From positions 1-38,333 of IMG/VR virus record IMGVR_UViG_3300038475_000012: 38,333 nt of DNA; one strand, 5' to 3'. This DNA comes from a virus. Taxonomy: Duplodnaviria; Caudoviricetes. A program made the translations under genes and the position numbers. The notes under the pieces are model-generated. The model did not search any database. It worked only from the letters and a program-made list of their open reading frames with translations, and was not told the DNA's origin. Positions 1 to 37,395 of this stretch are shown in pieces; position 1 is the first letter of the stretch, and the number at the start of each line of letters is the position of its first letter.

Positions 1-127
1 CAGGAAATAGAAGCGCTCAATTTAATTGGATAGCAGTAGGCTTAATATAATAATTTAAATAACTCTATACAAACATATGGCATCTGCAAAAAGTAGGTAC
101 TACGCTAATCAAGTAAAAAAGGGGAAA
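1..127. repeat. 127-bp terminal overlap, identical to 38207-38333 (circular contig)
   Basis: First and last 127 nt are identical; the fibre ORF end and the start of ORF 77 continue across the junction. Confidence 0.97.
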
Positions 128-19697: not shown

Positions 19698-19876
19698 ACG
19701 AAGAAGAATACAAAACAATAATGGGATTAAATTCAAAAGATATCGGAAACGTTAAATTACTTCGTGCTTTTGTGAATGAAAAACTAAAAGAAAAAGGATA
19801 TAACAAATTGCGTGGATATAAATCAATGAAAGAGTTGCTAGCAATAAAAATTAAGTCAATGCTAAACTAATTGAAG

Positions 19877-20536: not shown

Positions 20537-20546
20537 TAAAATAAAA

Positions 20547-20750
20547 ATGAAACCATTTTTTATCCAAGGTTGGTGCGGAAGGTACACTTACGAAAAAAAG
20601 GATCACTGGGGAAAAGAAGTTTTAGGAGAAGGAACAGGACATAGTGTTTACGGGCTTGATGAAGACGGACAGATTTGGAAATATACTTGTCAAAAAGGAA
20701 ATTGGGATTGGGCAAAACTAGAAGACACAAAACCAACAGAAAATATTTGA
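20547..20750 (+). CDS. Hypothetical protein
   Basis: ORF track. Confidence 0.55.
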   Translation: MKPFFIQGWCGRYTYEKKDHWGKEVLGEGTGHSVYGLDEDGQIWKYTCQKGNWDWAKLEDTKPTENI

Positions 20751-20775
20751 CAAAAAGTAAAATCGGGTGTATAAT
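20747..20775 (+). promoter_or_regulatory. Consensus sigma70 promoter heading the late arm
   Basis: TTGACA-17 nt-TATAAT. Confidence 0.85.
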
Positions 20776-20803
20776 AGGGAAAACTGAATATAAAATAAAT
20801 AAA

Positions 20804-20853
20804 TACGAAGACAAAGGGCAAAGTTGCCCAATTAAAAGTCTTCGTTTTTTTTT
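20804..20853 (+). terminator. Terminator-like hairpin in the late leader
   Basis: ACGAAGAC/GTCTTCGT stem with inner GGGCA/TGCCC, followed by a T run. Confidence 0.55.
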
Positions 20854-20941
20854 GATAAGAGTGTTAGTGATACACCCGTATTGCAAAGAGGGCTCAAACC
20901 CTCTTATCAGTAAAAAATTATGAAAGGTAAACGGAAACCTT

Positions 20942-21409: not shown

Positions 21410-22544
21410 ATTCAGAGTATTATTGGCTGGACGAAGATTTGGTAAAACAGTATTAGCTGTAGAGGAATTAGCTTTCAATGCTTTAACAATAAAAAAAGCA
21501 AGAGTGTGTTACATAGCACCGACTTATCAGTCAGCAAGAGATATAGCTTGGGATATGCTAAAGAATAGATTGACTGGAATAGAAGCAAAGATAAACGATT
21601 CAAGATTAGAGATAGAAATTAACGGAAGTAGGATAATGTTAAGAAGCTGGGAGAATATAGAAACACTACGAGGACAGTTCTTTGATTTCATAGTAATGGA
21701 CGAGGTAGCTCAATATAAGAATTTCTGGGTTAATTGGCAGGAAGTATTAAGACCTTGCTTAACTGATCGCAGAGGTAGAGTATTATTTATTTCAACTCCA
21801 TTAGGATTTAATCATTTTTACGATTTATACAATAAGCCGGAATACAAAAGTTTTCATTTTACCAGTTATGACAATCCCTATCTCCCAGTAGAAGAACTAG
21901 ATAAAGCCAAAGAAGAAATACCAGAAGATAGATTCGCTCAAGAATATCTAGCAGACTTTAGAAAGACTCAAGGATTAGTTTACAAAGAATTTAGTAGGGA
22001 AAGACACGTTACAGACGAACAACCCAAACAAGTCATTGATACGATACTAGGAATAGATTTTGGATATACTAACCCAGCGGCTATTATTCCTATCAAGATA
22101 GATTCAGATAATAATTATTGGATTTTAGATGAGTGGTATAAAAGCAAACAAACAACAGAACAAATTGCAGAACAAGCAATGCTCTACAAATCGACAAAGG
22201 TTTACCCTGACCCTGCAGAACCTGATAGAATCGAAATCCTCAGAAAATCTGGCCTTAACTGTCGTGAAGTTTCCAAAGACATTGTGGCGGGAGTTGATAA
22301 CGTTAGGGAATTATTTAAACAAGGAAGGATTCACATTAACCCTGACTGCAAAAACCTTATCTATGAACTCGAGACGTATCGTTATCCTGACAAGAAGCCT
22401 GAAAAGAACGAAGAAGAAAAACCAGTCAAGGAAAACGACCACGCGTTAGATGCTCTAAGATACGCCCTATACACTCACAAGCCTAAGAAAAAGATATCTG
22501 ACCCTATATTTGAACAAAGAGGAACATATTATCAAGATATATGA
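21360..22544 (+). CDS. terL: Terminase large subunit
   Basis: LHPKQ, AGRRFGKT, MDEVA, ISTP, GIDFG, DHALDALRY. Confidence 0.95.
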   Translation: MVRLHPKQREIVQSKDRFRVLLAGRRFGKTVLAVEELAFNALTIKKARVCYIAPTYQSARDIAWDMLKNRLTGIEAKINDSRLEIEINGSRIMLRSWENIETLRGQFFDFIVMDEVAQYKNFWVNWQEVLRPCLTDRRGRVLFISTPLGFNHFYDLYNKPEYKSFHFTSYDNPYLPVEELDKAKEEIPEDRFAQEYLADFRKTQGLVYKEFSRERHVTDEQPKQVIDTILGIDFGYTNPAAIIPIKIDSDNNYWILDEWYKSKQTTEQIAEQAMLYKSTKVYPDPAEPDRIEILRKSGLNCREVSKDIVAGVDNVRELFKQGRIHINPDCKNLIYELETYRYPDKKPEKNEEEKPVKENDHALDALRYALYTHKPKKKISDPIFEQRGTYYQDI

Positions 22545-22825
22545 AAAACAACTCTACAAAAGACATTAATTACTGGAAACAATTATTATTTATTTTAGCG
22601 GATGAGGTGAATGTGCATAATGTTAATTTTCCAGTGGGTGTTGATGAAAACGGAAGTGAAATAGAATTGGAATACAACAAAGACGATGATGATATTTACT
22701 GGGTACACGCTAATGTTAAGAAAGAAATTAAAAAGCCAGAAAGAGTTTGTTTAATTTTAAGAAATATATTTAACCAATGGAACAACAAACAACAACTGAA
22801 CAAACAACACAACCTAAGCCAGTAG
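22541..22825 (+). CDS. Hypothetical protein
   Basis: ORF track; ATGA overlap with terL. Confidence 0.55.
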   Translation: MKNNSTKDINYWKQLLFILADEVNVHNVNFPVGVDENGSEIELEYNKDDDDIYWVHANVKKEIKKPERVCLILRNIFNQWNNKQQLNKQHNLSQ

Positions 22826-24588
22826 TAACTGACCAGCAAATCATAGATACCTTATTCAAAGAAAAGGAAAACTATCAACAGACTAACAATTCTGAACGTG
22901 ATGCAGTCAATGAGATTTATACTGTCTATATGGGAAATACAGAGACTATAGAAACAACATCTAACAAGTCTTACTTTAAGTCTGTAGATATCCCCAAGAT
23001 GCGCACGGAGATAAGTTATATCGTGCCTTTTATTTTTTCCGGTAACCCTGAAATAGAAGTTGAAGGAGTGGGAGGAGAAGACAAAGAAATAGCCCAAATA
23101 TTGGAAAAGATTATCAACTATAGATTTGAAACTATCCCTAGCTTCTATGAAAAGATTGAGGCGTGGGTAAAGCAAGGTGTAACCTTTGGAACTTCACTTA
23201 TAAAAGTTATTTGGAAGTTTGAAATGCAAGACAATGGAGATGGAACTCAAACTCCTATAACAGACGAACCCAGTCTAGATGTACCTAACATTCTAGATTG
23301 TTTTTATAATCCAATCGTATCAGATATAGAATGCCAAAGTTCAATCATATTTAGAAGTGTCTTACCGATAGATGAAGTCAAGAATAATCCGGCTTATGAT
23401 TATGAAAGCCAGATACCTAACGATGACGGAACATCTAAACTAAACAGGGAACGAGTAATATCCGGAAGTTTAAAGACTAACAATCACGACTCTACTAGAC
23501 AGATGACATCAGATGCTATTACTCTAAACAAAGCAGGTGAAGGAATGATAGAAGTATATGACCGAATAACCAAAGACAGGATTCAAACTATTGCAGATGG
23601 AAAGGAACGCTTAATACTAAGAGATAAAGCTAAGGACACAGGATTCATTGAAGTTGTTAAGTTTGTATTTGAACCTAACTGCATCCCTAATAGATTCGAT
23701 GGATTCGGCGTAGGACAAAACACCTTAGGACTTTCGAAAGGTTATCATTCAATTTTTAACCAGACCAAATTCAACGCTACGATGTGCAACAATCCGATGT
23801 TCTATTCAGAAAAGGGAACGATACCTGATAAGAAACAGTTAGTGGCTAAACCCGGTGGGATAGTAGAAATAGACTTAGACGGACAACCTATTCAATCTAA
23901 ATTTGGAGTCATACAATTTCCTGATATAAAACAAGGAGCGATTGAGATACTTAATAAGTTTGATGATGAACATAAGCGCGCCAGTGGAGCTAATGATTTG
24001 GTTCAAGGTTCGGCTTCCAACAAAACCTTAGGACAAGACCAGATAGCTTCAACTTATTCGTCTAATAGATTTGAACTTATTACAAGACGATTTAAGCAAG
24101 CATTAGCAGACCTAGCCAGAATGATGATAGATATGGAACTTAAAAGAATCCAAAGTCCGGAAGCTGATATTCTTAGAATATTCCCCGATGAAGTAGACAC
24201 AGGACAAGTTGACCAAATGGGACAGCCTGTAATGGAAACAGGAATAAGAGAACAGATATATCAACTCTTAATCAGTGAAGACGCTCAAAATGCTAAGTAC
24301 AATATAAAGATTAAAGGCGAGACTACGATAGCCAAGAATAAAGACGTTCAGATAAAACAACTGACTGATGCTTATAATTTATTTGGACAAATACTCCCTC
24401 CTGAAAATCAAATGGAATGGGCAAGAAAGATTTTACAGTTAAGAGGAATAGATGAAATAGATAAACTAGTTCCAGATCCGCAACAGTTCGCTCAAGAACA
24501 AGCCCTACAGCAAATGGAACAGCAACCAGTAGACCCCAATGCAATGGGTCAAGGAATGACCCCTCAACAGCCTAGTCCAATGATGTAA
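22777..24588 (+). CDS. Portal protein
   Basis: 603 aa after TerL; FGTS.IKV.W, PNRFDGFGV, KPGGIVE, ASGAND..QG motifs and Q/M/P-rich tail typical of P22/N4-like portals. Confidence 0.9.
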   Translation: MEQQTTTEQTTQPKPVVTDQQIIDTLFKEKENYQQTNNSERDAVNEIYTVYMGNTETIETTSNKSYFKSVDIPKMRTEISYIVPFIFSGNPEIEVEGVGGEDKEIAQILEKIINYRFETIPSFYEKIEAWVKQGVTFGTSLIKVIWKFEMQDNGDGTQTPITDEPSLDVPNILDCFYNPIVSDIECQSSIIFRSVLPIDEVKNNPAYDYESQIPNDDGTSKLNRERVISGSLKTNNHDSTRQMTSDAITLNKAGEGMIEVYDRITKDRIQTIADGKERLILRDKAKDTGFIEVVKFVFEPNCIPNRFDGFGVGQNTLGLSKGYHSIFNQTKFNATMCNNPMFYSEKGTIPDKKQLVAKPGGIVEIDLDGQPIQSKFGVIQFPDIKQGAIEILNKFDDEHKRASGANDLVQGSASNKTLGQDQIASTYSSNRFELITRRFKQALADLARMMIDMELKRIQSPEADILRIFPDEVDTGQVDQMGQPVMETGIREQIYQLLISEDAQNAKYNIKIKGETTIAKNKDVQIKQLTDAYNLFGQILPPENQMEWARKILQLRGIDEIDKLVPDPQQFAQEQALQQMEQQPVDPNAMGQGMTPQQPSPMM

Positions 24589-24767
24589 ATTTATGATAAC
24601 TCTACACATAAGCAAAAATCATTTCGATTATAAGATTGAGAAGAATGGAAAACAAACGGGTGGGACTATATGCGAAGAGATATTTAATCCTAAACTTACA
24701 GACGGATGGCATAAAAACAAGATTGGAATGAATTTATACAAAACTGTTTAAATGATGAAAAAACTCT

Positions 24768-25076
24768 ATGATAAAACAAAGATTTGTAGATTGGTTCTTT
24801 AGTTCACTGGAAAAAGAATTTAAAGACCAAAATAAGAAAATTGAAAAACTAGAAAAAAAACTGGAATTCCTTGATGGAAAAATTGATATGAATATCGGGA
24901 TAGATGAAAATATCAAATGGAAAGTATATCGTGTTATTGAAGACCATTTCCCCGATGAAATACATACTGTAAAACTAAGAGACGGCAGTGAACTTAAAAG
25001 TATAGTAACAGTTAGTCCGAAACACTGGGAAAGAGTAGACAAGTATATAAAAGAATTAGAAACAAATGAAAAATAA
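24768..25076 (+). CDS. Hypothetical protein
   Basis: ORF track; starts at AAACTCTATG. Confidence 0.65.
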   Translation: MIKQRFVDWFFSSLEKEFKDQNKKIEKLEKKLEFLDGKIDMNIGIDENIKWKVYRVIEDHFPDEIHTVKLRDGSELKSIVTVSPKHWERVDKYIKELETNEK

Positions 25077-25230
25077 AGAAGAACTAAACGAACTCTACGA
25101 ATTGCGTAGAGACTATGATAAAAAAAATTGTGACCCTAAAAATTTAATAACATTGTGTAATAGTTGTCATTCAAAAACAAATTTTAATAGAAAAAAATGG
25201 ATAATATATTTTTCTAGTCCAATGCAATGA
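25066..25230 (+). pseudogene. Chimeric remnant: duplicated gene start fused to an HNH C-terminus
   Basis: MKNKEELNELYELR + DYDKKNCDPKNLITLCNSCHSKTN. Confidence 0.65.
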
Positions 25231-25415
25231 AAGAATATTTAAGATGTTATTTAGGAAATAGAAGAATGAAAAGAAATTATAAATTACAAGAATATCAAGA
25301 TAGATTAAAGTTTTTCCTTCATCCTTGGATTAAGACAGGCTATGCTAAGAACTATAGACTGAGAATAAAGGAAATAATTAAAAGTGCGATACTAATCTGT
25401 TATTACAAGATATGA
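25227..25415 (+). CDS. Hypothetical basic protein
   Basis: ORF track; ATGA overlaps at both ends. Confidence 0.5.
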   Translation: MKEYLRCYLGNRRMKRNYKLQEYQDRLKFFLHPWIKTGYAKNYRLRIKEIIKSAILICYYKI

Positions 25416-25666
25416 ACTCTAAAGACGAACTACAAGAACTCTATACCCTTAAAATGTTTATCGAATCCCAATCATTCCAAAGATACCTGTTACAACCATT
25501 GAAGGATGAAATAAAGAAACTTAGATATGCTTATGACTGCCAATCTTTAAGAGAACTATCAACCGTTAAAGGAAAATCACAAGGATTAAAATTTATTATA
25601 AGACTGATTAAGAATATAGAAACAAGAATTAAAGACTTAGAAATTCAAGACAATCCTAAACTCTAG
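25412..25666 (+). CDS. Small protein between portal and scaffold
   Basis: Position and helical KGKSQGL pattern are typical of this slot in podovirus head modules. Confidence 0.65.
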   Translation: MNSKDELQELYTLKMFIESQSFQRYLLQPLKDEIKKLRYAYDCQSLRELSTVKGKSQGLKFIIRLIKNIETRIKDLEIQDNPKL

Positions 25667-25728
25667 TGTCTTGAGCTTCTAAATTAAAGGTCGATAGAAG
25701 TTCTTTAAAAAATCCAATCTCAAAAAAT

Positions 25729-26451
25729 GTGGATACTAACGAAGAAATAACGACACCCGAAGGGAGCGACGGCGCTACGTCCTCTCCGGATACTGTCGAT
25801 AACGTTACCCAGCCTGTAGAATCTGAAGAAGGCGTTAGCGACGCTAACCAAGAGGACACAGGAGAAGGCACCTTATTGGCAGGAAAGTATAAAAATGTAG
25901 AGGAACTAGAAAAGGCATATCAAGAATCTCAAAAAGCAATGGGACAACTCAGCCAGAAAGCTGGGTTAGTAAACCAACTAGAACAGACGACAGGTATGAC
26001 TTCTCAACAGATTGCCGAAGCATTAGCTAATCAAGAACAGCAACGAATGAACCAAGCTATACAGGATAATCCTGGACTAGCAGCGTTCCAAGAAGTGCAG
26101 TCCTTGAAAAGCCAGCTAGCTTTACAGCAAGAAGAAAAGGAACTGGATAAGTTTCTTACTTCTGAAGAAGGCAAGCCGTACGCTTCCCAACGGGACAAAA
26201 TATTTAAGCTAGGACTTAATCTTGAAAAAGACAAGACCTATGCCGAAATAGCCAAAGAATACTTTGGAGAAACCCGCGCTCAAGGTCAACAAGATGCTTA
26301 CAAGAAGATTGAACAAAAAATAGGTACACAGGCGACTGGAGCATCTCAAGCTGCCCCTAAAGGCAGGGTTTCAATAGAAGATATGAAAGGTATGTCATCT
26401 AAAGAAATGGAGTCTTTTCTCCCTTGGGCTGACATCTCCAATCGTCCGTAA
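25729..26451 (+). CDS. Capsid scaffolding protein
   Basis: Acidic N-terminus, LLAGKYKNVEELEKAY motif, coiled coil; directly before the MCP. Confidence 0.85.
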   Translation: MDTNEEITTPEGSDGATSSPDTVDNVTQPVESEEGVSDANQEDTGEGTLLAGKYKNVEELEKAYQESQKAMGQLSQKAGLVNQLEQTTGMTSQQIAEALANQEQQRMNQAIQDNPGLAAFQEVQSLKSQLALQQEEKELDKFLTSEEGKPYASQRDKIFKLGLNLEKDKTYAEIAKEYFGETRAQGQQDAYKKIEQKIGTQATGASQAAPKGRVSIEDMKGMSSKEMESFLPWADISNRP

Positions 26452-26457
26452 AATACT

Positions 26458-27429
26458 ATGCCATATACCGCATTAGGCACATCCGCCCTTACAACTGGTG
26501 GATTATCTGCCGTTATGCAGGTTTACTACGACAAACTGTTTTTGGAACGAGTTCAAGCAACGAGAAAGTATGACTTTCTTGCAGTACAAAAGATTGTTCC
26601 TAAAAATAGTGGAAAAGTAGTTTACTTTACCCGTTTTAATCAGATGACTGCCAACAAGACTGCTTTGACAGAAGGTGGCTCACCATCTGGTATAAACACC
26701 TCCGCTTCTAACGTAGTTGCAACTGCAGCTCCTTATGGAGCTTATGAAGTCGTTTCGACTTTGTACGAATTGACCACGCTTGACTCAGGTTTGAAAGAAC
26801 ACGTCGAGCTAATGGGACAAAACGCAGCTGAATCTATGGATATCGTGCTTGGTTACGAAATAAACAACTCCGCTACAGTTCAATGCGGTGGAGCTACCTT
26901 CGCTGCTCAAGCCTCCGCTATCGCTTCTACTGACACGTTGTCAGTATCAAGTCTTAGAATGGCTGTTGCTACCCTTAAAAAGAACAAAGCCCCTAAATGG
27001 GAGAACGGCAATTATCGTGCTGTTGTCAACGTTGACGGAGCTTATGGACTACAGGGTGATACGGCTGCTGGAAACTGGGTTAACATTGGACTTTACAATT
27101 CATCGCAAAACGCTGAAATGTTGAAGAAAGGTGTTATCGGTACTCTCTACGGTGTTGATATCGTAGAAACCAATCAGGCTTTCAGTACTTCAGGTGTTAT
27201 CGGAACTGCCTCTATTGCCTGCCGCTCTAATTTCATCGCTGGCAAAGGTGCTGTCGCTGAAATAAAAATCGGTGGACAAGGAGATGCTCGTATAATTGTT
27301 GACCCTCCAAAAGACCCGCTTCGAATGGTTTCGACAGTTGGTTGGAAAGTTGACGCTTACGCCGCTAAGGTGTTAAACGCTGACTGGGTTATCAATATGC
27401 ACGCATACGGAACTGGAACAGCTAACTAA
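26458..27429 (+). CDS. Major capsid protein (N4-gp56-like)
   Basis: PKNSGKVVYFTR, LTEG..P, IGTLYGVDIVET, DPL...TVGWK. Confidence 0.92.
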   Translation: MPYTALGTSALTTGGLSAVMQVYYDKLFLERVQATRKYDFLAVQKIVPKNSGKVVYFTRFNQMTANKTALTEGGSPSGINTSASNVVATAAPYGAYEVVSTLYELTTLDSGLKEHVELMGQNAAESMDIVLGYEINNSATVQCGGATFAAQASAIASTDTLSVSSLRMAVATLKKNKAPKWENGNYRAVVNVDGAYGLQGDTAAGNWVNIGLYNSSQNAEMLKKGVIGTLYGVDIVETNQAFSTSGVIGTASIACRSNFIAGKGAVAEIKIGGQGDARIIVDPPKDPLRMVSTVGWKVDAYAAKVLNADWVINMHAYGTGTAN

Positions 27430-27501
27430 TCAATTTTGATTATTTGGGCGAGTATCTCACGAAATCGCCCAAAGTGAGAAAATAATCAACTAATAAAAAT
27501 T

Positions 27502-27678
27502 ATGAAAAAAGTATCACAGCCTGAGTTGGCTAAACCTAAAAAGAATCAAAGTCCAGGACACAAGTTTAATCAAGCCGCTCATCCTAAAAAACACACTATT
27601 AAATCAAAGAAAATTAAAAAGGTTGAAAAAAATGTAGATGTTCCAGTAATGAATAAATGGAAACCTTTTGGAATGTAA
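27502..27678 (+). CDS. 58-aa Lys-rich protein
   Basis: Translated by hand; its stop overlaps the AAACTCTATG of the next gene. Confidence 0.55.
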   Translation: MKKVSQPELAKPKKNQSPGHKFNQAAHPKKHTIKSKKIKKVEKNVDVPVMNKWKPFGM

Positions 27679-27683
27679 ACTCT

Positions 27684-28187
27684 ATGGCATCAGAAGCAAG
27701 AATAGCATCAAATAAATGGCTTAGAAGAAAAGCCAAAGGAATCAAGGGGGATGTTCTTTCAATAGGTTCAATGAACGATGACGACTGTGAAGGAGGAAAG
27801 TACAGGAAGTACTTTGAATCTGCCAAGTCCTATACGACTTCCGACACAGACTCGGTATTAGGTGAAGTTGATCTTGTACTGGATGTAAAGAAACTAGACT
27901 TACCTGATGAAAGTTACGACTGTATATTCTGTTCTGGGGTATTGGAACACGTTGATGACTTTATGCAAGGAATGAGAGAAATTACCCGTGTACTTAAAAA
28001 TAAAGGAACATTATTACTAGGCGTACCTTTCAGACAAGCAATCCATAGTTACCCGCACGACTATTGGAGGTTCACAGAATATGCGCTTGAATATATGTTA
28101 AAAGATTATAAGATTAAAGAGATAAAACCCATAGATGATAAGGATTTCCCTGCATCCTACTGGGCAATAGCTATTAAAACTCTATGA
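27684..28187 (+). CDS. Class I SAM-dependent methyltransferase
   Basis: VLSIGS, YDCIFCSGVLEHV, RVLKNKG, HSYPHDYWRFT; start moved from 27657 to the motif ATG. Confidence 0.88.
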   Translation: MASEARIASNKWLRRKAKGIKGDVLSIGSMNDDDCEGGKYRKYFESAKSYTTSDTDSVLGEVDLVLDVKKLDLPDESYDCIFCSGVLEHVDDFMQGMREITRVLKNKGTLLLGVPFRQAIHSYPHDYWRFTEYALEYMLKDYKIKEIKPIDDKDFPASYWAIAIKTL

Positions 28188-28402
28188 AAAAAGAATTAAG
28201 CTGGCAATTTATTGCCGCAGACAAGCAGGAAAAAGATGGAAGATTTATGGAAGCTACGATAATTACAGTGAATGCTGTTGATGAAAAAGGAGCATTAAAA
28301 AAAGCGAAGTCTGTCATAAAAAGGAAAATATTTTTTCTAAAATCAGTGGCAGAAATTGATAACAGGATGGATAAAATTATTGATAATATGAAAACTCTAT
28401 GA
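28184..28402 (+). CDS. Hypothetical protein
   Basis: ORF track; motif start. Confidence 0.7.
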   Translation: MKKELSWQFIAADKQEKDGRFMEATIITVNAVDEKGALKKAKSVIKRKIFFLKSVAEIDNRMDKIIDNMKTL

Positions 28403-28662
28403 AACCATTTGGACAAAGATGTATCGTAATTATAGAAAAAAACTACATCAAAGAAAAAGGTAAACAAGTTTTGTTAGATGACGGTTATTTAAAATACGAC
28501 TTACCTCAAGAGGGAAAAGTAATCAGTTCTAACTTAGAAGGAATAAAAAAAGGAATGACTGTTATTGCCAATTACCGAGGAGGGATGCCGGTTATAAAGT
28601 TAGAAAATAAGAAGTTGGTTACTGTAATTTTTGACGCTGACGATATTTATGCAGTCCTCTAG
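28399..28662 (+). CDS. GroES-like co-chaperonin
   Basis: MKPFGQRCIV...GKVI...IKKGMTV...DDIYAVL parallels GroES (KPLGDRVLV...VK.GD.V...DILAV). Confidence 0.65.
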   Translation: MKPFGQRCIVIIEKNYIKEKGKQVLLDDGYLKYDLPQEGKVISSNLEGIKKGMTVIANYRGGMPVIKLENKKLVTVIFDADDIYAVL

Positions 28663-28903
28663 ATTTAGAAAATTAACCGATAGATTCGGTTGGAAGATAA
28701 GACCGATAACTTGTATCATCAATGGTAAACTGACCAGACGACCAGACATCCTAGCAGTAGAGAATCACGGCTTATGGGAGATGACGATACCGAAAAGAAT
28801 CTACAGTTTATCTGACCAGACATATACTGATTTGTTAGGACTGCAACACCCATCTTACTTTGAGTGTGAATCTAAGGCTTATAGTAGAAAATATGGAAAA
28901 TAA
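28649..28903 (+). CDS. Hypothetical protein
   Basis: ORF track 28631..28903; first ATG at 28649. Confidence 0.55.
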   Translation: MQSSRFRKLTDRFGWKIRPITCIINGKLTRRPDILAVENHGLWEMTIPKRIYSLSDQTYTDLLGLQHPSYFECESKAYSRKYGK

Positions 28904-30596
28904 ATTTAAAGTTCTGGCTATCATTACAGACTTAATAAGCAAGAATGGTAAAAAGTTTAAAAAGAAAGGCAAGCCAATTCACGGAGCAATCGGATGGTAT
29001 CGAGTTGTTAATCCTTTAAAAAGACTAGGGGCTGATATTTCTTTAGGAATGACTGTCCGTGCTGATCCTCAAAGTGCAACAGAAATGAAAGCAAGAGGAG
29101 ATATCTGGTTTCTAAAAATGGCTGACAATGAAGGCATAGATTATATCTACGACACTCATAAGAATTTTACTGGTGCTAAACTGATTATAGACATAGACGA
29201 TGAACCAGGAGAAGTTGACGAGAATCATCCCGACTCCAAAGCGATCAAAGAAAAGAAAGATATGCGGATGAGAATGTTAAAGATAGCTGACCACATTGTT
29301 GTGTCTACGCCTAAGCTGAAAGAGTCAATTAAAGACATCAATCCGTATTGTACTGTTATCCCTAACGCAATAGATCCTGACTTGTGGAAGATAAAGAACA
29401 AGTTAAAAAAAGACGGCAAGATTAGGATAGGTTGGATGGCTAGTGCTTCTCATTTCGTTGATACGCCTATCATCAGGCCAGCAATGGAAGAAATTTTAAG
29501 TAAATACCCCAACGTAGAGTTCCATTTTGCAGGATTTACTTGGGATGAATACAAAGAAGATAGATTTTTTCATCACGTTGGAGTAAGAGATTATATGGAT
29601 TTTCCTAAATGGTATGCAAAATTAGGCATAGATATATCAGTCTGCCCTTTAAAAGACAACAAGTTTAACCAAGCCAAGTCAAACATCAAGTGGATGGAAG
29701 CCGCAATGCTAGAAATTCCAACTATAGCCAGTGATACAGAGCCTTATAAGTGCATTAAGCACGGAAAAACAGGCTATCTGGCTAAGAACTCTAATGATTT
29801 TGTTAAATACCTGTCTTATCTGATAGAAAATGAAGAAAAGAGAAGGGAGATAGGACAAAATGCCAAGCAAGCCGTCTTAGATGAGTGGACTACTGATAAA
29901 TTTACCCATTTATACAAAGATTTATTTAAAAATATAGTTGATTTTAAAGAAATAGCTGTAGTTACTGCCATTACAGGAGATAAAGATGATTTAATCGAGC
30001 AAACCAGTTATCAAGGCGTTGAATACATCGCATTTACAGACCAGAAGTCATCTCAATGGAAGACTAGAAAACCCTGCGATAAGTTCAAAGAACCAGTAAT
30101 GAACGCTAAGATACACAAGATTTTGACCCATAAATATACTGATTTGCCCTACATAGTTTGGATGGATGGAAATTGTAAGTTAAAACAAGACCCCCACGAA
30201 CTGATAAAATTGATGGGAGATGAAGACTTTGCTTTCTTCACCCACCCAGGACGAGATTGCATTTATGATGAAGCGGATACTTGTGTTCAATTAAAAAAAG
30301 GAAACCCCAAAGAACTAGCGGAACAGATAAGAGAGTATGCCAAGCAAGAACACGCTCCTCACAGCGGACTATGCGAACTGACTTGCTTTATAAGAAAGAA
30401 CAATCCAAAATCTAATTTAGAATTTGAAAAGTGGTGGGCTGAGATTTGCAGATATTCAAATCGAGATCAAGTTTCCTTTCCGTTAATTTTTAAATATTGG
30501 GAAACTATACCAGGAACTGTTGCCAAGATAGAAGGAAATAAAACCTTTGTCGGCAATGATTTCTTCGAGTATAGGAAACATAAACTCTATGACTAA
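28893..30596 (+). CDS. Bifunctional glycosyltransferase (GT-B/GT4-like + DUF616-like domain)
   Basis: IDIDD, VIPNAID, IGWMAS, KSNIKWMEAAML; C-terminal VTAITGDKD, WMDGN, HPGRDCIYDEA, RDQVSF. Confidence 0.88.
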   Translation: MENKFKVLAIITDLISKNGKKFKKKGKPIHGAIGWYRVVNPLKRLGADISLGMTVRADPQSATEMKARGDIWFLKMADNEGIDYIYDTHKNFTGAKLIIDIDDEPGEVDENHPDSKAIKEKKDMRMRMLKIADHIVVSTPKLKESIKDINPYCTVIPNAIDPDLWKIKNKLKKDGKIRIGWMASASHFVDTPIIRPAMEEILSKYPNVEFHFAGFTWDEYKEDRFFHHVGVRDYMDFPKWYAKLGIDISVCPLKDNKFNQAKSNIKWMEAAMLEIPTIASDTEPYKCIKHGKTGYLAKNSNDFVKYLSYLIENEEKRREIGQNAKQAVLDEWTTDKFTHLYKDLFKNIVDFKEIAVVTAITGDKDDLIEQTSYQGVEYIAFTDQKSSQWKTRKPCDKFKEPVMNAKIHKILTHKYTDLPYIVWMDGNCKLKQDPHELIKLMGDEDFAFFTHPGRDCIYDEADTCVQLKKGNPKELAEQIREYAKQEHAPHSGLCELTCFIRKNNPKSNLEFEKWWAEICRYSNRDQVSFPLIFKYWETIPGTVAKIEGNKTFVGNDFFEYRKHKLYD

Positions 30597-30810
30597 AGAA
30601 GAATTGAAACACAAACTATTAAATTATGATACTGAATATGTTTCTCAAGTTAGGCCTTACGAGGGACAAGTTAGAATGACTGACGGATTTGCTTTTAAAG
30701 ATGATGTTATGGATATGTTCACTGAAGAAGAATTGAAAAAATACTCTGATGTTAAACTTATTCCTTATCCGGAAAAAGGAATAAACCAGTGGAAGATAAA
30801 ACTAATTTAA
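30589..30810 (+). CDS. Hypothetical protein
   Basis: Motif start inside track ORF 30547..30810. Confidence 0.65.
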   Translation: MTKEELKHKLLNYDTEYVSQVRPYEGQVRMTDGFAFKDDVMDMFTEEELKKYSDVKLIPYPEKGINQWKIKLI

Positions 30811-30816
30811 ACTTTA

Positions 30817-31661
30817 TGAAAATTGCACTGATAAATTATGAACAAAATCTTGGAATGGACGCTATCCTTTCCAAGTACGCCCGAATGTTAGAAAGAGAAC
30901 TTATAGACCTGGGACATGATGCCTTTATAACGGGAGAGCCAGTCGAGGCGGATATAAACCATCATATCAATTATATTTCATATAAACCCAGCGGTGGGAT
31001 AGACACCACGATGATTACCCACCTAACAGGAGATTTAAGCCACAGTGAAAAAGAAAAGATAAAGATGTGCAAAGAACAGTCAAAGACTGCTTTCGGAATC
31101 TGTATGAATAAGGAGATAATGGAGAAGCTCATTAAAAATGGAATACCCAAAGAAAAACTGTCTTATGTCCTGCACGCTCACGATGGAATGGAAAGAAGAC
31201 CACGCTTGATAGCAATGATTTATAACGTTTATCCAGACGGAAGGCAAAGAGAAGATATGTTTGTAAAACTGGTAAATTCACTCAAAGATAAATCAGACTA
31301 TGCTTTTCAGATTATGGGTAAAGGTTGGAAGCCGATACTCGACTCGCTTTTGAAGAAAGGCTTACAGGTAAATTATATGGATAATTTTTACGGAGACCTT
31401 TACCAACAGATGCTGATGACTTCTGACTATCTGTTATTCACAGGGGATGAAGATTCACTGGCTCAAAGTATCGTTGATGCAACCAACGCTGGACTTAGAG
31501 TCATAGCCCCGCCCCAGAATGGATTAAAAGTAGAATACCCTTTCAGTAATCAGCAAGAATTGAATCAGATATTTAAAGATATAAACTCTAATCCCGTGCG
31601 TGATTGGACTTGGGAAAACTACACCAAGCAGCACGAAACTCTATGGAACAGATTAAAATAA
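30817..31661 (+). CDS. Glycosyltransferase-like protein (GT-B)
   Basis: MKIALI start, L..LGHD, MGKGW, SDYLL...SIVDA.NAGL.VI. Confidence 0.7.
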
Positions 31662-32179
31662 ATTTAGGAGCGGGGATAAAACCGATAGAAGGATTTATCA
31701 ATGTAGATATCGAAGACTTAGGAAAAGACTATGTAAAAGCTGATGTTAGGAAACTTCCTTTTGATGACAACTTTGCTGACTATATCCTAGCTTCTGAAAT
31801 ATTAGAACATATCCCGATAAGAGATTTGCACAGTACATTAAAAGAATGGAAAAGAGTTTTAAAACCCGGTGGAAGAATGGTTATCAAGTGTCCAGACTTT
31901 GAAGCAATGGCTAAGGAATGGTTATCAAAGTCTTTTCTTCCTCAAGAGTATTCTGAAATGGCGCAAGGGCTTTACGGAAAACAAGCAACAGAAAATGAAT
32001 ATCACCGTTCCCCTATCACAGTTCCTTTAATGCAGTATCTGTTAGGCTCACTGAAATTTAAGAGAGGCGGAATAGTTACTTACTCGAAAGGTCATAAGCA
32101 AATAAGTTATCCAGGTATCAAAGCCAATCCGAGACGAGTCTATAGGTTCGGCACAATACATTGCGATGTTATCAAATGA
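31643..32179 (+). CDS. SAM-dependent methyltransferase
   Basis: INLGAG, INVD, ILEHI, RVLKPGG, CPD. Confidence 0.88.
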   Translation: MEQIKINLGAGIKPIEGFINVDIEDLGKDYVKADVRKLPFDDNFADYILASEILEHIPIRDLHSTLKEWKRVLKPGGRMVIKCPDFEAMAKEWLSKSFLPQEYSEMAQGLYGKQATENEYHRSPITVPLMQYLLGSLKFKRGGIVTYSKGHKQISYPGIKANPRRVYRFGTIHCDVIK

Positions 32180-32667
32180 AACTTAACTTGGCTTGTGGAG
32201 CAGACTACAGAAATGACTGGATAAACATAGACAACAACTCTCAAGGTGATTTTAAAGTAGATATAAAGAAAGATATTTTAAAACTGAAATGGAAAAAGAA
32301 CTCGGTCGATAGTATTCTGGTAATTCATTATATAATGTACTGCACTCCCCCAGAATTAGATATGCTTTTAAAGAGATGGTACGGATGGTTAAAAGTAGGA
32401 GGAGAATTACAGATTGAAACAGGAAACCTTTATGAGATATGCAAGAATATTCTGAAATGCAATACGATTGAAGAATTGCACGGAAAGAATTGCTTAAGGC
32501 AGGTATTCGGATGGGAAGAAACTCACGGTCACAAATGGTTATGGGCTCCAATAGTAGTTAAAGACGCTATGGAAAGAGCAGGATTTAAAGAGGTGGAATT
32601 AGCAAAGGGATACTATCACGAAAATCCAACTAGAGATTTTGTAATTAATGGAAAGAAAACTCTATGA
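32176..32667 (+). CDS. SAM-dependent methyltransferase-like protein
   Basis: LNLACG...WINID, WLKVGG; paralogue of the upstream gene. Confidence 0.8.
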   Translation: MKLNLACGADYRNDWINIDNNSQGDFKVDIKKDILKLKWKKNSVDSILVIHYIMYCTPPELDMLLKRWYGWLKVGGELQIETGNLYEICKNILKCNTIEELHGKNCLRQVFGWEETHGHKWLWAPIVVKDAMERAGFKEVELAKGYYHENPTRDFVINGKKTL

Positions 32668-32900
32668 CTTGGGATGAATTACAAAAACCATTTATAGGAG
32701 GTCATTGGTGGTACTGGATATTAACAGGAAGAAAATACAGTTTTCCTTTTATGAAACAAGACGGATATAAGGTTTATTGGAAAGTAGACGCCAGGCTTCC
32801 TAAATACCAGCAAAAACCCATTGAATGTAAATTGCTTAATTGGATATTTTATTTAGAATGTAAAGTCAATAAATTGAGAAGGAAACTCTATGAAAGGTAA
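32664..32900 (+). CDS. Hypothetical Trp-rich protein
   Basis: ORF track; motif start. Confidence 0.65.
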   Translation: MTWDELQKPFIGGHWWYWILTGRKYSFPFMKQDGYKVYWKVDARLPKYQQKPIECKLLNWIFYLECKVNKLRRKLYER

Positions 32901-33840
32901 AAAAATAGTTGTAGTGGGCGGTGGAGGATTTTTAGGAAGCCACCTAGTCAATCATTTAATTAAAGACAACGAGGTTTTAGTTTTAGATAACCTGATTACA
33001 GGAAAGAAAGAATTTGTCCACCCCAAAGCCGAGTTTATGTGGTGCGACATCACTCATAGTGAAAACCAGCTCATTAAAATATTTAAAGGTTACGATTACG
33101 TTTTCAACTATGCCGCCGAACCTTACATCCCCGTTTCGTTTGAACGACCATTACACGTTTTCGACATCAATGCTAGAGGAGCTTTAATGGTTATGAACGC
33201 CGCCCAAGAGGCAGGAGTGAAAGGAATCCTGCAAGTATCATCAGCAGAGATTTACGGGGACGCTCCGGAACACAAGATAAACGAAGAATATCCAGCCAGA
33301 CCGCATTCAACTTACGGAGCGGCAAAACTGGCTATAGACGCATTAGTCCAAGCAAGGTGGAGAGAATCAGGTTGTCCAGTGATTGCTCTTAGACAGTTCA
33401 ACTGCGTAGGGGAACGAGAAACTCATCCTTATGTAATTCCTGAAATAATCGGACAGTTAAGTAACAGTCCAACAGGAGAAGTCAAATTAGGAAACGATAC
33501 ATTTAGAGATTTTCAATACGCTGGGGACGCTGTACGGATGGCAACGGAACTTTTGGAAAAAGGACAGTTTGGAGAAGTTTACAATATGGGTTCAGAAAAA
33601 GGAATAAAGATATACGACTTGGCATTGCTTATAGGAAATATGATGGGAATACAACCAATGATTATAAAGGACGTAAAGAGAATAAGACCGTGGGACATAT
33701 TTCATTTACAAAGTGATAATACTAAACTCTATTCGGTGATTGATTCCCGACCAGAAGTTTCTTTAGAAGAAGCTTTGAAACGGACAATCGCTGATTATAA
33801 AAAAAATGGATTCATATTTACAACTGGAAAAAGAATATAA
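32890..33840 (+). CDS. NAD-dependent nucleotide-sugar epimerase/dehydratase
   Basis: GGGGFLGS, SSAEIYG, YGAAK (YxxxK), RDF, YNMGS. Confidence 0.93.
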   Translation: MKGKKIVVVGGGGFLGSHLVNHLIKDNEVLVLDNLITGKKEFVHPKAEFMWCDITHSENQLIKIFKGYDYVFNYAAEPYIPVSFERPLHVFDINARGALMVMNAAQEAGVKGILQVSSAEIYGDAPEHKINEEYPARPHSTYGAAKLAIDALVQARWRESGCPVIALRQFNCVGERETHPYVIPEIIGQLSNSPTGEVKLGNDTFRDFQYAGDAVRMATELLEKGQFGEVYNMGSEKGIKIYDLALLIGNMMGIQPMIIKDVKRIRPWDIFHLQSDNTKLYSVIDSRPEVSLEEALKRTIADYKKNGFIFTTGKRI

Positions 33841-34687
33841 GAAGTTTGTCGGTTCAAAGTATGCGGTTAGCTGTAACAGTGGAACATCAGCCTTACATCT
33901 GGCTTTAAAAGCGATAGGAGTAGGTTACGGAGATGAAGTGATAGTTCCAGAATTCACAATGATTGCCTGCGCTTATGCTGTATCGTATTGCGGAGCGACG
34001 CCAGTATTTGTAGATTGCCGAGATGACTTGAGCATTAACCCGTATCTCATAGAAGAAAAGTTGACCGGACGAACCAAAGCAATTATGCCAGTCCATATTT
34101 ACGGAATACTGTGCGATATGAAGACAATTCTAAGCATTGCCAAAGATAACCGATTGAAAGTCGTAGAGGACGCTTGCGAAGCGCAAGGAGCAGTTTACAA
34201 GTCAGAAGCCGATATAACCTGTTACTCGTTTTATAAGAATAAGATAATCCACGCAGAAGAAGGAGGGATAGCCACGACTGACAACAAGAAATATGCTGAT
34301 AGGATGAATTACCTTAAAAATATGTGTTTTAATAAGAAACACAATTATATCCACGAAGAAATAGGATTTAATTACCGAATGCCAGACAGTCAAGCCACAT
34401 TGGCGCTACATTCGCTCCACAATTATTCACAAGAGAAGGAAAGGAGGCAGGAACAAGTTGATAAATATAATAAAAGGTTTGGTTTGAATGTAAAGAATGA
34501 CGCTAACTGGATTTATCCAATCAAGAATGCTGATAACTGGATTAAAAATTACGATGGATTATATGCTGATTTAAAAACAAGAGAATTTTTTAAGCCAATG
34601 AGCCAACAACCACCTTACTTTGATTTAAACTATAAGAATCTGAACGCCTATAGATTATCTAAGCAAGGTATGTACATAAAATTATGA
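33806..34687 (+). CDS. DegT/DnrJ/EryC1/StrS sugar aminotransferase (perosamine synthase-like)
   Basis: NSGTSALHLAL, PVHIYG, EDACEA, SFYKNK, GFNYRM; lacks the usual N-terminal segment. Confidence 0.93.
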   Translation: MDSYLQLEKEYKKFVGSKYAVSCNSGTSALHLALKAIGVGYGDEVIVPEFTMIACAYAVSYCGATPVFVDCRDDLSINPYLIEEKLTGRTKAIMPVHIYGILCDMKTILSIAKDNRLKVVEDACEAQGAVYKSEADITCYSFYKNKIIHAEEGGIATTDNKKYADRMNYLKNMCFNKKHNYIHEEIGFNYRMPDSQATLALHSLHNYSQEKERRQEQVDKYNKRFGLNVKNDANWIYPIKNADNWIKNYDGLYADLKTREFFKPMSQQPPYFDLNYKNLNAYRLSKQGMYIKL

Positions 34688-35145
34688 CAGATGTATTTAG
34701 AGAACGAGTAGAATCGCCCCTAGAGCCTGAAATTGCCCCACAAGCCCCGAAACCCTTTGAAGAAACACCAGTACCCAGTGGGGAAGTAAAAGCCCAAGAA
34801 TCTGCCACGGCGGACGAAAAGCAGATTGAGATATGGGAAGGATTGAACCGAAGAAAGTACATATCAGAATATTTTAATATAAAAGCATTTGAAGGAGAAT
34901 TTAATTTAAAAATGCAAACCTCTCAGATAGACAAATATATTCGAGGGGAAATAGAAAAAAATGGATTTGAAAAGTCTATTGGAAATTATGAAAAGGTACT
35001 TCGAGAACTGGAAGCAGAGATTGGCTCTGATAGACTGGAAACATTTAAAAGGATTTCAAGATTGACAGGATATATTGCGGCATTGAATCGTCTCAATAAG
35101 GCAAAAGAAACTAAAGAAAGGTATTTAAACTCTATACAAATTTAA
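34684..35145 (+). CDS. Hypothetical protein
   Basis: ORF track; coupled to the aminotransferase. Confidence 0.7.
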   Translation: MTDVFRERVESPLEPEIAPQAPKPFEETPVPSGEVKAQESATADEKQIEIWEGLNRRKYISEYFNIKAFEGEFNLKMQTSQIDKYIRGEIEKNGFEKSIGNYEKVLRELEAEIGSDRLETFKRISRLTGYIAALNRLNKAKETKERYLNSIQI

Positions 35146-35167
35146 TATTTAGTGTATAGAGTTTTTT
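35127..35167 (+). terminator. Terminator-like hairpin built from the AAACTCTA motif
   Basis: AAACTCTATACA / TGTATAGAGTTT 12-bp stem running into a T tract. Confidence 0.55.
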
Positions 35168-35208
35168 ATTCCAAGGAGGATGTCCATAGAGTTCGTCCTC
35201 CAAGGAAT
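35168..35208 (+). promoter_or_regulatory. Hairpin with SD sequence in the stem and anti-AACTCTATGG loop
   Basis: ATTCC-AA-GGAGGATG [TCCATAGAGTT] CGTCCTCC-AA-GGAAT. Confidence 0.7.
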
Positions 35209-35228
35209 TAAGTATTTTATACAAATCT

Positions 35229-35810
35229 ATGGCATATACAAAATCTACATTGGCTACATTAAAGCAAAATTTAGCAGACAGGCACGACGGTGGGACGCTT
35301 CCGACAGACTCGGCTACTCTTTCTTATTGGATAAGACTTTTTAATAAAGGAGTCCAGTATTGCGCAGACGCTTTACAGCTTAAAAAGTTAACTTCTTTAA
35401 CGACTGTACTCGGAGTTATCGCTTTACCCGATGATTTCAAGTCTATCAATGCGGTTTTTAGCGGTGCAGAAGAATTGACACAAGTTTCCCCTGATGACGC
35501 TAGTAGCCAAGTAGGTTTTGTTTATTGGATAACTGGCGACCACGACACAGGGTTTACACTTAACGCAACGGCTGACCAAGCATTTACAGTTAAATATGCT
35601 TACTTTCCAGCTGATATGGCAGTGGATGCTGATGAATGTATCATCCCCGACCCAGAGGCTGTAGTGGCTTACGCTTATTCAATGATAAGAAGGGCAGAAA
35701 CCGACCCGATTGGGGACGCTCAAGAATCTATGGATGAATGTAAAAACAGGATCAAGTCAATGAAAAGTGATTATGATAATAATAATTCTAACCAAGAGAT
35801 GACAATGTAA
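35229..35810 (+). CDS. Head-tail adaptor (tubular protein A-like)
   Basis: 193 aa, LPDDF motif; precedes the nozzle gene. Confidence 0.7.
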   Translation: MAYTKSTLATLKQNLADRHDGGTLPTDSATLSYWIRLFNKGVQYCADALQLKKLTSLTTVLGVIALPDDFKSINAVFSGAEELTQVSPDDASSQVGFVYWITGDHDTGFTLNATADQAFTVKYAYFPADMAVDADECIIPDPEAVVAYAYSMIRRAETDPIGDAQESMDECKNRIKSMKSDYDNNNSNQEMTM

Positions 35811-37378
35811 TGCCAAAGTCAAAGATTAAAACTAAAGAATACGATGACTTAGGAAAGGGTATCAATGTTTTTACCCGAGATACAATGATTAAAGAAAACG
35901 AATCCGCTGCTGGGTATAATGTTTGGGCTGTCGGAAAAAACTCAATCGCCAAGCGTCCGGGGATTACTAAGCTTTGTACCATTGCCGGTGGAAAAGCGAT
36001 AGACGGATTAGGATGTTATTACAGCGGAGCGACTAGAAATTTAGTAGCTATTTCAAACGGAGTACCTTATACCATTGAAACAGGAACCGCAGTAACGATG
36101 TCAGCAGTTCCAGCTAGTGCTGGAGCTTTCACTGCAGGAAAACGGCACGACTTTGCTCAAGGTGTAGGGAATCTTTTTACCGCTAATGGAGTAGATAAAA
36201 TAAGATACTTTGACGGAGCGTGGCGAGAAAACACGGCTAATTCAATCGTAGCTTCGTATCTTATATTTTATAAGTCTTGCCTTTGGGCGACAGGTTGCCC
36301 GACTGTAGGTAAAGAATCATCTTTGTATCGTTCAGGGGACGGAGCAACAGTTAATGCGGCAGTTGGTAACTTCACTTATAACGTCAGCACTAACCCTTTA
36401 GCGACTGAGAAATACGTTTCACAATCAGACGGACAGAAATTAAAAGGATTCTTTAAACATCAAGATTACTTGTATCCAGTAAAAGAAAGAAGTTTATGGC
36501 GCTGTTCAGTGGGAACAGATGCGGCACAACTTATTACTTTAGAAATGGTAGACCCTTCCAGAGGTTGTGATTCTCATTTTTCAATAGACTCGGTAGACAA
36601 TGACAATTTTATGTTTCAAGAGCAAGGAGTAATGGCGACCGGATACGAACCGAACATTTTAGACCAATTAAGAACAAATATAATTTCATTAAGGATAGAC
36701 AACAAGATAAAGGCGATAGAAAAATCAAGATTGGATGATGTTTGCGGAATTTACTTTGACAATCATTATTATCTTTCTTACACATCAGGAGGCGGTGGAG
36801 TGAACGATACGATTATGGTTTATGACCGGCAAAGACTTGGCTGGTGGGAGTTCAATATCGGAGCGAATTGTTTTTCAGAATTTAAGGACTCCAATGGTTA
36901 CACTAAACTCTATTTCGGAGATTCAACTGGAAACATCTACTACTTTGACGCAGGAGTAAAATCAGATAACAGTTCGGCTATTCTTACTCAATGGAAAACA
37001 GGAAAGTTAGGTTTTGGAAACTACGCTCAATCTAAGTTTTTTCTACAAACAGTTTTATATTTTGGAAAGACTCCAGGGAATGTAACCATCAATGTTTATA
37101 TCGATGATAAATTAGCAAAGACTGTGCCTAAAAAAATAGGGAATACCGGAACAGCTGGAATAGGTAACTCATCAATAGGAACTTATATATTTGGAGTAGA
37201 GGGAGGATCTTTGACTATTGCTGATAAAGGTGGAGGAGATTTTGTTCCAATTCCAATCAATAAAATAGGACGTAATTTACAGATAGAAGTAACCGATAAT
37301 ACATCCGACAAGGGATGGGAATTAAACGCTTACGAAGTTATGTATACAGAATTAGATAATATGTTTCAACCAATATAA
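35810..37378 (+). CDS. Tail nozzle/stabilisation protein (tubular protein B/P22 gp10-like)
   Basis: 522 aa beta-propeller-like; KRPG near the N-terminus, GCDS..SI, WKTG. Confidence 0.75.
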   Translation: MPKSKIKTKEYDDLGKGINVFTRDTMIKENESAAGYNVWAVGKNSIAKRPGITKLCTIAGGKAIDGLGCYYSGATRNLVAISNGVPYTIETGTAVTMSAVPASAGAFTAGKRHDFAQGVGNLFTANGVDKIRYFDGAWRENTANSIVASYLIFYKSCLWATGCPTVGKESSLYRSGDGATVNAAVGNFTYNVSTNPLATEKYVSQSDGQKLKGFFKHQDYLYPVKERSLWRCSVGTDAAQLITLEMVDPSRGCDSHFSIDSVDNDNFMFQEQGVMATGYEPNILDQLRTNIISLRIDNKIKAIEKSRLDDVCGIYFDNHYYLSYTSGGGGVNDTIMVYDRQRLGWWEFNIGANCFSEFKDSNGYTKLYFGDSTGNIYYFDAGVKSDNSSAILTQWKTGKLGFGNYAQSKFFLQTVLYFGKTPGNVTINVYIDDKLAKTVPKKIGNTGTAGIGNSSIGTYIFGVEGGSLTIADKGGGDFVPIPINKIGRNLQIEVTDNTSDKGWELNAYEVMYTELDNMFQPI

Positions 37379-37395
37379 TCAATTAAATTTAAAAT

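Follow-up and report, generated by a model that had tools for sequence, protein, structure and literature searches.

The window analysed here, 38,333 nucleotides (nt) of the virus record IMGVR_UViG_3300038475_000012 (Caudoviricetes), is the complete genome of a phage (38.2 kb, a single-contig assembly with a 127-nt end repeat) that is present in peat metagenomes. Eight late-gene starts in this genome share a repeat, AAACUCUAUG (hereafter, the tag), and a small hairpin upstream of the adaptor gene, denoted P1, carries a loop that is complementary to it. The early arm (10754-20750) is followed by the late operon, which comprises the genes for the terminase (21360), an SU10/P22-type portal (22777), the scaffold and the major capsid protein (26458), then a modification cluster and the adaptor gene (35229), downstream of which are located tail genes, putative ejection genes and an endolysin. 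A Shine-Dalgarno (SD)-like word is found at only 4 of the 66 starts, i.e. the genome is SD-less, and the generic start context is A(−6) A(−5) ... T(−1).

Tagged starts in the late operon

The tagged sites of the window are as follows; duplex energies refer to pairing with the P1 loop and lengths are given in amino acids (aa).
24761..24770 (+): tag at ATG 24768, 102-aa gene of unknown function after the portal gene; duplex −11.8 kcal/mol
27677..27686 (+): tag at ATG 27684, methyltransferase; duplex −14.9 kcal/mol
28177..28186 (+): tag at ATG 28184, 72-aa gene, with an ATGA stop-start overlap
28392..28401 (+): tag at ATG 28399, GroES/Cpn10-like gene, whose start is tagged more consistently than any other among relatives
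30582..30591 (+): tag at ATG 30589, 73-aa gene
30809..30818 (+): near-variant AAACTTTATG at ATG 30816, pairing with the loop through one G-U, −9.2 kcal/mol; orthologues have AACTCT
31636..31645 (+): tag at ATG 31643, methyltransferase; 11-bp match, duplex −16.3 kcal/mol
32657..32666 (+): tag at ATG 32664, 78-aa gene
32883..32892 (+): tag at ATG 32890, NAD-dependent epimerase
22550 (+9), 24598 (+5), 25091 (+25), 25415 (+3) and 25437 (+25 of ATG 25412), all within 22550..25443 (+): AACTCTA just inside coding starts
61..67 (= 38267) (+): AACTCTA at −16 of ATG 77, first putative ejection protein
7268 (+): AACTCTA at −12 of ATG 7280

AAACTCTATG occurs in 8 copies, all on the + strand and at the eight ATGs named in a preliminary description of this sequence, whereas shuffled sequences contain 0.13 copies on average and 2 at most. 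Each of these ATGs opens a reading frame, and three upstream proteins end in KTL*, as had been proposed; the remaining upstream overlaps use other frames (KLY, ETLW), so that protein constraint cannot account for the tag word. From a model of the position frequencies at the other starts, 0.11 AACTCT-ATG starts would be expected, compared to the eight seen. The core AACTCTA, previously put at about 22 copies, occurs 23 times on the + strand (22 distinct sites, given that the copies at 61 and 38267 are one site in the end repeat), in every case in the late arm, and 6 times on the − strand, the expectation for both strands summed being 7.0. Between positions −30 and +33, AACTCTA is found at 14 of 42 late starts and at none of the 24 early starts. 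Some of the earlier statements have to be modified. Thus, many copies of the core are indeed associated with starts but are located at −16 to +25 rather than immediately before the ATG; the eight genes do lack SD sites, but this is a property of the whole genome and not special to them; and the near-variant assigned to an ATG at 30817 precedes ATG 30816. A leaderless promoter immediately before the tag was rejected, given that no −10-like box was found upstream of the eight tags. Four close relatives contain 6-9 copies of AACTCTATG each, nearly all on a single strand and often ahead of non-homologous genes.

The P1 hairpin and its joint variation with the tag

The following features were identified between the modification cluster and the adaptor gene.
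34684..35145 (+): gene X, whose 153-aa all-helical product belongs to no known family; in relatives, P1 trails the 3' end of the gene
35127..35164 (+): competing hairpin P0, in which the lower-stem 5' arm is paired to a tag copy in the final gene X codons
35153..35223 (+): extended stem beneath P1, with RNase III-like boxes at 35156-35169 and 35209-35220
35170..35208 (+): hairpin P1, a predicted 39-nt excised RNA; stem TCC-AA-GGAGGA / TCCTCC-AA-GGA with a 2-nt 3' overhang
35185..35193 (+): loop seed CAUAGAGUU, the exact complement of AACUCUAUG

P1 is located between the final post-capsid cluster gene and the adaptor gene, and the gap between gene X and the adaptor gene holds two of the six minus-strand AACTCTA copies. 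The segment 35115-35240 folds with a z-score of −4.95, and in a 300-nt context most loop bases are unpaired with a probability of at least 0.9 (two are at 0.3-0.4). The eight ATG-site duplexes with the loop, computed as free strands, range from −11.8 to −16.3 kcal/mol. Of the 55 distinct regions examined upstream of adaptor homologues, 41 contain a hairpin of the P1 type, one per genome: in 33, it is within 130 nt of the adaptor gene, and in the other 8 it is separated from it by one or two genes (and follows gene X if the latter is covered); among the 14 loci without a hairpin, the seven well-covered ones form one clade and the others are short or unresolved. Scans of further viral contigs yielded one additional P1 locus, L208. 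The set of hairpins compared below (n = 39) was obtained after removal of the near-duplicates G003, L078, L086 and L116. Two regular-expression hits, L124 and L130, were discarded because of their weak folds. Loop length is 9-11 nt across the relatives, and the typical loop, UUGUAGAGUU, pairs perfectly with AACUCUACA and, via two G-U pairs, with AACUCUAUG.

In a gap-free alignment of 14 homologues, double changes are observed at all 14 stem pairs and 93% of the cells pair, a level reached in 0 of 500 shuffles and compared to 36-50% in slid controls, although the members were chosen for a 10-nt loop and the structure was set from their folds, which favours the comparison with the slid control. 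The stem sequence is thus free to vary. Read on the + strand, the stems contain 23 G-U pairs but only 3 A-C or C-A, and this excess of G-U points to an RNA on the late strand. Of two models of the hairpin, R2, built without the window, matches the window weakly (E = 0.8), and R1 misses the window's own hairpin at E ≤ 1, because the window loop has 11 nt and the stem contains an internal loop. The Rfam scan of the window at E ≤ 1 yielded 3 unrelated weak matches, none within 35100-35230.

Several other assignments of the hairpin were considered and rejected. P1 follows gene X and separates from the adaptor gene upon gene insertion, and so is not a cis element of the latter. Neither P1 nor P0 appears to be an intrinsic terminator: no + strand terminator is predicted in 20500-38333, and P1 lacks a U-tract in those relatives that were inspected.

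Five related phages show compensated loop and tag pairs at orthologous starts. In G007, the loop is CAUAGGGUU and the GroES-like gene starts with the tag AACCCTATG, where the sisters L039 and L042 carry AACTCTATG. G012 combines the loop UGAGGGUU with AACCCTATG at the GroES-like start and AACCCTCA at a glycosyltransferase start; at the same site as the latter, G016, with the loop UGAGAGUU, has AACTCTCA. L127 (loop GCAGAGUU) carries AACTCTGC and AACTCTGT at the GroES-like gene, and G006 (loop UGUAGAGUC) carries GACTCTACA at the post-portal gene. Near the starts of all seven phages with variant loops, the complement of the phage's own loop is over-represented (9 vs. 1.7 expected) and the standard tag is depleted (6 vs. 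33.9 expected); these phages are scattered across the adaptor tree. Taken over every reading that involves base-pairing between the two RNA segments, whether it acts in trans or in cis and whether it represses or activates, we consider this pairing very likely to be real.

Joint change of direct and inverted copies would likewise be expected if AACTCTA were a site in DNA, i.e. a protein operator or a recombination or cassette junction, and the loop an inverted copy in a DNA hairpin, with the copies drifting jointly; the gene content of the post-capsid cluster is variable, and G-T pairs are tolerated in single-stranded DNA hairpins, too. However, the strand bias (22 vs. 6), the registration of the tags to start codons, core genes included, and the invariable placement of the lone inverted copy in the loop of a hairpin with an RNase III-like stem base are at odds with such a site, and tags inside coding starts would make poor cassette borders. 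This interpretation therefore appears very unlikely. A phage or host RNA-binding protein that recognises the tag, with the hairpin serving as an unrelated processing site or stabiliser, is still more doubtful. T4 RegA-type proteins are translational repressors, and gene X, of unknown function, adjoins P1, but the complementarity between loop and tag and their joint change in five phages would be left unexplained. Gene X was also rejected as a recognisable RNA-binding protein or nuclease, given that there was no Foldseek match in the PDB at E ≤ 0.001 and no usable Atlas feature for its model (predicted local distance difference test score, pLDDT, 79).

Where the loop is of the standard type (19 loci), 107 of the 164 late-strand sites are located at most 60 nt from a candidate start; position −6 is the most frequent, with 33 sites, and the others are spread from −59 to +55. 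Sites exactly complementary to the phage's own loop, between −45 and +36, are present at 11/17 GroES-like, 7/15 post-portal and 4/13 terminase starts and are also common at transferase and epimerase starts; in the same interval, there are none at capsid (0/17), adaptor (0/29), fibre (0/16) and gene X (0/25) starts. Two aspects favour repression, namely that the AUG or the first few codons are within the duplex and that the capsid gene is spared. The opposite sign, whereby P1 bound to ribosomes or to a protein would deliver or retain 30S subunits at tagged starts or stop-start junctions in place of SD pairing, fits the sharp −6 peak, the loop reading into the AUG, the ATGA overlaps at many tags and the SD-less genome. 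Nevertheless, a duplex over the AUG or at +3 to +33 cannot occupy the mRNA channel, the tag positions are spread from −59 to +55, and the capsid gene, the most highly needed one, is never tagged. We accordingly regard activation as quite unlikely, and equally so its variant in which an RNase III-excised guide, a phage-made replacement for the anti-SD, would recruit or hand on ribosomes in trans at the tagged late genes in an SD-less patescibacterial host; the notion, within this variant, that the CAU/UGU loop reads AUG like an anticodon is held with the same low expectation. In general, the tag is unlikely to be a signal that promotes initiation.

Two further features are located at the capsid gene.
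26458..27429 (+): major capsid gene, untagged start in 17/17 P1-bearing phages
27438..27487 (+): conserved predicted pseudoknot behind the capsid stop; the tags of relatives cluster directly downstream

In the pseudoknot, the hairpin loop pairs with the adjacent downstream strand (UCUCAC/GUGAGA in the window, CUCGA/UCGAG in L039, CUUGA/UCAAG in L046). A hairpin was picked automatically in 38 loci, and 24 of these show pairing of at least 5 bp (2.5 expected); another 6 loci gave no hairpin. The element is also present in P1-less phages, has no Rfam match and may possibly act as a 3' stabiliser of the capsid mRNA.

The likely host, predicted processing of P1 and a proposed model of late-gene control

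The closest relative of the capsid protein among species genomes (46% identity) is encoded on a 31.6-kb phage contig, syntenic with the window, in the metagenome-assembled genome (MAG) G001. This 1-Mb MAG, titled Gammaproteobacteria, encodes uS12 with an internal insertion, as described for the candidate phyla radiation (PMC9297842); uL30 was found in 1 of the 31 genomes of its phylum and not in G001 itself. Given this one unintegrated binned contig and the start context, which in G001 and G410 is similar to that of the phage, the host is likely to belong to Patescibacteria. An 886-kb contig of the same class as G001, G410:C1, contains at ~205000-223000 an apparent integrated, distantly related podovirus-like prophage without the tag.

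The preliminary description had noted that AAACUCU is complementary to the conserved 16S AGAGUUU and had suggested an SD-independent initiation or reinitiation signal. In agreement with this, the tag matches the host-like A(−6) A(−5) ... T(−1) context, and the loop UUUUGGAGAGUU of L083/G015 has the same sequence as a 16S 5' end that is common in Patescibacteria, by chance or as a trace of the origin of the seed. However, the tag is not a genome-wide start context of the host: the density of AACTCTATG does not exceed ~20 copies per Mb in 301 host-phylum genomes, similar to a reversed control, compared to ~210 per Mb in the phage, and the tag is absent from the 24 early starts. The 16S bases concerned form helix 1 of the central pseudoknot of 16S rRNA. 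Moreover, in 150 of the 150 listed host-phylum 16S 5' ends, AGAGTT is preceded by G or A, neither of which can form a Watson-Crick pair with the A of AACUCUA; in the phage loop, this position is U. These 150 ends are among 173 matches from 172 of the 301 genomes, obtained with a pattern that omits ends with G six bases upstream, and leaving out G191, which is unpublished and present in both samples, gives 149/149 with the conclusions unchanged. AGAGUU is nearly invariant in 16S rRNA whereas the tag varies with the phage loop, and the 16S rRNA of G001 retains the normal anti-SD, so that neither the 5' end nor an altered 3' end is a suitable partner. Host initiation is thus largely refuted as an explanation of the tag and is the least probable of those considered here. 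The tag is real and specific to the phage, and it is the other proposal of the preliminary description, an operator for an RNA regulator of late translation, that is supported by the present analysis.

Every hairpin examined stands on a stem of 22-30 bp. Scored against the Escherichia coli RNase III consensus quoted in PMC4357697, 28 of the 39 hairpins reach at least 12/16, compared to 9% of shuffles, and the window matches 13 of the 16 specified positions; the cuts predicted in the window would free 35170-35208 with a 2-nt 3' overhang. In a set of 51 host-phylum genomes, RNase III was found in 48 and Rho in 11; Hfq was found neither in this set (0/51) nor among the 50 window proteins scanned. 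The one related metatranscriptome yielded short, dissimilar pieces only and has no bearing on expression either way. One further feature is relevant to transcription.
20747..20775 (+): perfect sigma-70 consensus TTGACA-17-TATAAT preceding the late operon

No site comparable to this consensus was detected on the + strand near P1. These observations suggest that AACUCUA(UG) is, as we think probable, bound by a small hairpin RNA that the phage encodes at 35170-35208 of the same late operon and that would be excised by RNase III and would repress the translation of late helper genes in trans. A long late mRNA from the promoter at 20747 would carry P1 behind gene X, and RNase III would cut both arms of its 22-30 bp stem, releasing a stable hairpin of 33-45 nt and splitting the head and modification genes from the tail genes. 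The freed hairpin would accumulate and pair, without Hfq, through 7-11 bp that cover or flank the AUG of the GroES-like gene, the post-portal genes, the methyl- and glycosyltransferases and the epimerase and, in some relatives, of the terminase, portal and scaffold genes. Pairing would block the loading of 30S subunits and stop-start reinitiation, because SD-less starts need a single-stranded A-rich entry site; the tag itself fits the generic start context, so that a tagged start would be usable until the RNA accumulates. Given that the capsid, adaptor and fibre starts are untagged, the RNA might set the ratio of mass-produced to low-copy proteins, a negative feedback inside one operon.

The loop could also fold, without being cut, onto one tag of the same late mRNA, as a long-range switch of decay, processing or translation. 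Complementarity and covariation would be equally expected in this case, most tags are upstream within the same operon, and in 23 of 39 loci a copy of the tag (close variants included) is located no more than ~90 nt upstream of the loop. On the other hand, a single loop would be unable to cover 15-20 sites per mRNA, some tags are downstream (ATG 77 and 7280), the stem base resembles a cut site, and, by analogy only, cis pairing was ruled out experimentally for the small RNA OppZ in the work reported (PMC7398697). Action in cis is thus unlikely.

Several observations weigh against repression by an excised trans-acting RNA. The transcript, the cut and the repression are predictions from sequence; the RNase III consensus is weak and derived from E. 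coli rather than from the host, which is itself deduced from one binned contig; and in the naked RNA of the window, P0 is predicted to out-compete the lower stem, although, as a speculation, the cut site could be uncovered by a ribosome that completes the translation of gene X or by P1 itself. G022, with the loop UAAGAGUU, retains AACTCTATG at two starts, and G015 (loop GGAGAGUU) pairs with its GroES-like start by wobble only and has no exact site near starts. In G019, where the search for P1 found none, one late start carries AACTCTATG and four other starts carry AACCCT(A). Counts of near-variants are ambiguous (6 vs. 0 for the wobble-compatible AACTTT, but 6 vs. 1 for AACTAT). The result of the Fisher test (34/1281 vs. 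3/828, P = 2.7 × 10−5) is inflated by kinship, and, because the 7 well-covered P1-less phages are one clade, their absence of tags amounts to one event; starts in relatives were called with a simple open reading frame caller. Finally, copy number alone does not predict the targets, given that the low-copy adaptor and hub genes are untagged. As to G019, its AACCCT(A) starts at oriented positions 36710-37284 (+) and 9843-10031 (−) lie outside the late cluster and may represent a second tag system; a hairpin matching the AACCCT(A) or AACTCTC found near some starts in G019/G025 was searched for in these phages and none was found.

The gene at 28399-28662 (+) encodes a phage GroES/Cpn10-like co-chaperonin that adjoins the capsid gene and is conserved in the family (Cpn10 matches in 11 of 18 members; structure match to GroES at E = 3 × 10−6). 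Between the capsid and adaptor genes, 27684-34687 (+) contains three methyltransferase-like genes, glycosyltransferases, an NAD epimerase and a DegT aminotransferase, a gene content that suggests glycosylation of the virion. The portal-scaffold interval includes a short HNH-like remnant (25066-25230, +), and the relatives have a strong hairpin between the post-portal and scaffold genes (G015 25006, G019 16193, G022 3889, G012 482, L148 1076), the corresponding interval of the window being 25666-25729. In an early intergenic gap, 14218-14322 (−) weakly matches the Rfam family YrlA (Y RNA-like; E = 3 × 10−6, under the gathering score) and contains a word similar to a tRNA T-arm and, after it, one similar to a D-arm; a search of the window for tRNA and tmRNA genes found none.

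Comparison with known systems

The termination upstream ribosome-binding site (TURBS) of caliciviruses is a termination-reinitiation motif located tens of bases upstream of the start, which pairs with rRNA and promotes reinitiation. The tag is similar in being a short motif at stop-start overlaps that pairs with an RNA displayed by a hairpin but differs in covering the AUG and in having a partner encoded by the phage. The group B non-SD ribosome-binding motifs of GeneMarkS-2, as outlined in PMC6028130, are likewise close to the start codons of SD-less genes; however, these motifs are A-rich and genome-wide, whereas the tag is late-specific, is not enriched in host-phylum genomes and is mirrored by a phage hairpin.

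We found no paper on the element: six supplementary files of PMC10690425 contained no match, although files 1, 2 and 4, outside this search, may include the hairpin as an unnamed candidate, and the main text of the Minerva preprint (10.64898/2026.09.22.753630) does not treat it. The phage base-pairing RNAs covered in the reviews consulted mostly control the lysis-lysogeny decision or host genes, through one or two sites. If the present interpretation is correct, P1 would be a minimal, Hfq-free RNA with many targets that tunes protein ratios within a virion-assembly operon, damping the assembly-helper genes and sparing the capsid gene. It would also show that SD-less translation starts can be addressed selectively, in likely hosts, Patescibacteria, for which post-transcriptional regulation is almost undescribed; the evidence for pairing is read from natural compensatory changes, and the short RNA-target pair is open to testing.

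The c4 antisense RNA of phages P1 and P7, as described in PMC5320573 and PMC12197685, is ~77 nt long, has three stems and two loops, is processed from a longer transcript with a cut by RNase P and controls antirepressor synthesis. By these accounts, the hairpin studied here resembles c4 in that a loop seed is complementary to initiation regions of phage mRNA, near the ribosome-binding sites in the case of c4, and co-varies with its targets among relatives; processing from a longer transcript, established for c4, is predicted for the hairpin. It differs in consisting of one hairpin of 33-45 nt with one loop and an RNase III-like base and in having 10-20 late morphogenesis targets in an SD-less phage. 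The Rfam C4 models gave no match in the window scan at E ≤ 1, and, without the three-stem fold and the two seed loops and with late genes rather than the antirepressor operon as targets, the hairpin is not a member of the C4 family.

OppZ and CarZ of Vibrio cholerae are autoregulatory small RNAs derived from 3' untranslated regions; OppZ depends on RNase E, Hfq and Rho and pairs at a single site (PMC7398697). As far as that report describes OppZ, the likeness, in which excision and repression are predictions in the case of P1, is in the derivation from the 3' part of an operon, the pairing with an initiation site further upstream in that operon, and the repression of inner genes with the abundant first product spared; similarly, P1 is located in the 3' untranslated region, after gene X in relatives, of the tag-bearing late operon. 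In contrast to OppZ, the seed of P1 is in the loop, its targets are many and it is encoded by a phage. In the host phylum, with Hfq in 0/51 and Rho in 11/51 genomes, the Hfq dependence of the OppZ/CarZ family has no counterpart, and P1 was rejected as a member. Thus, judged by analogy, P1 would work like the c4 RNA and OppZ but belongs to neither family.

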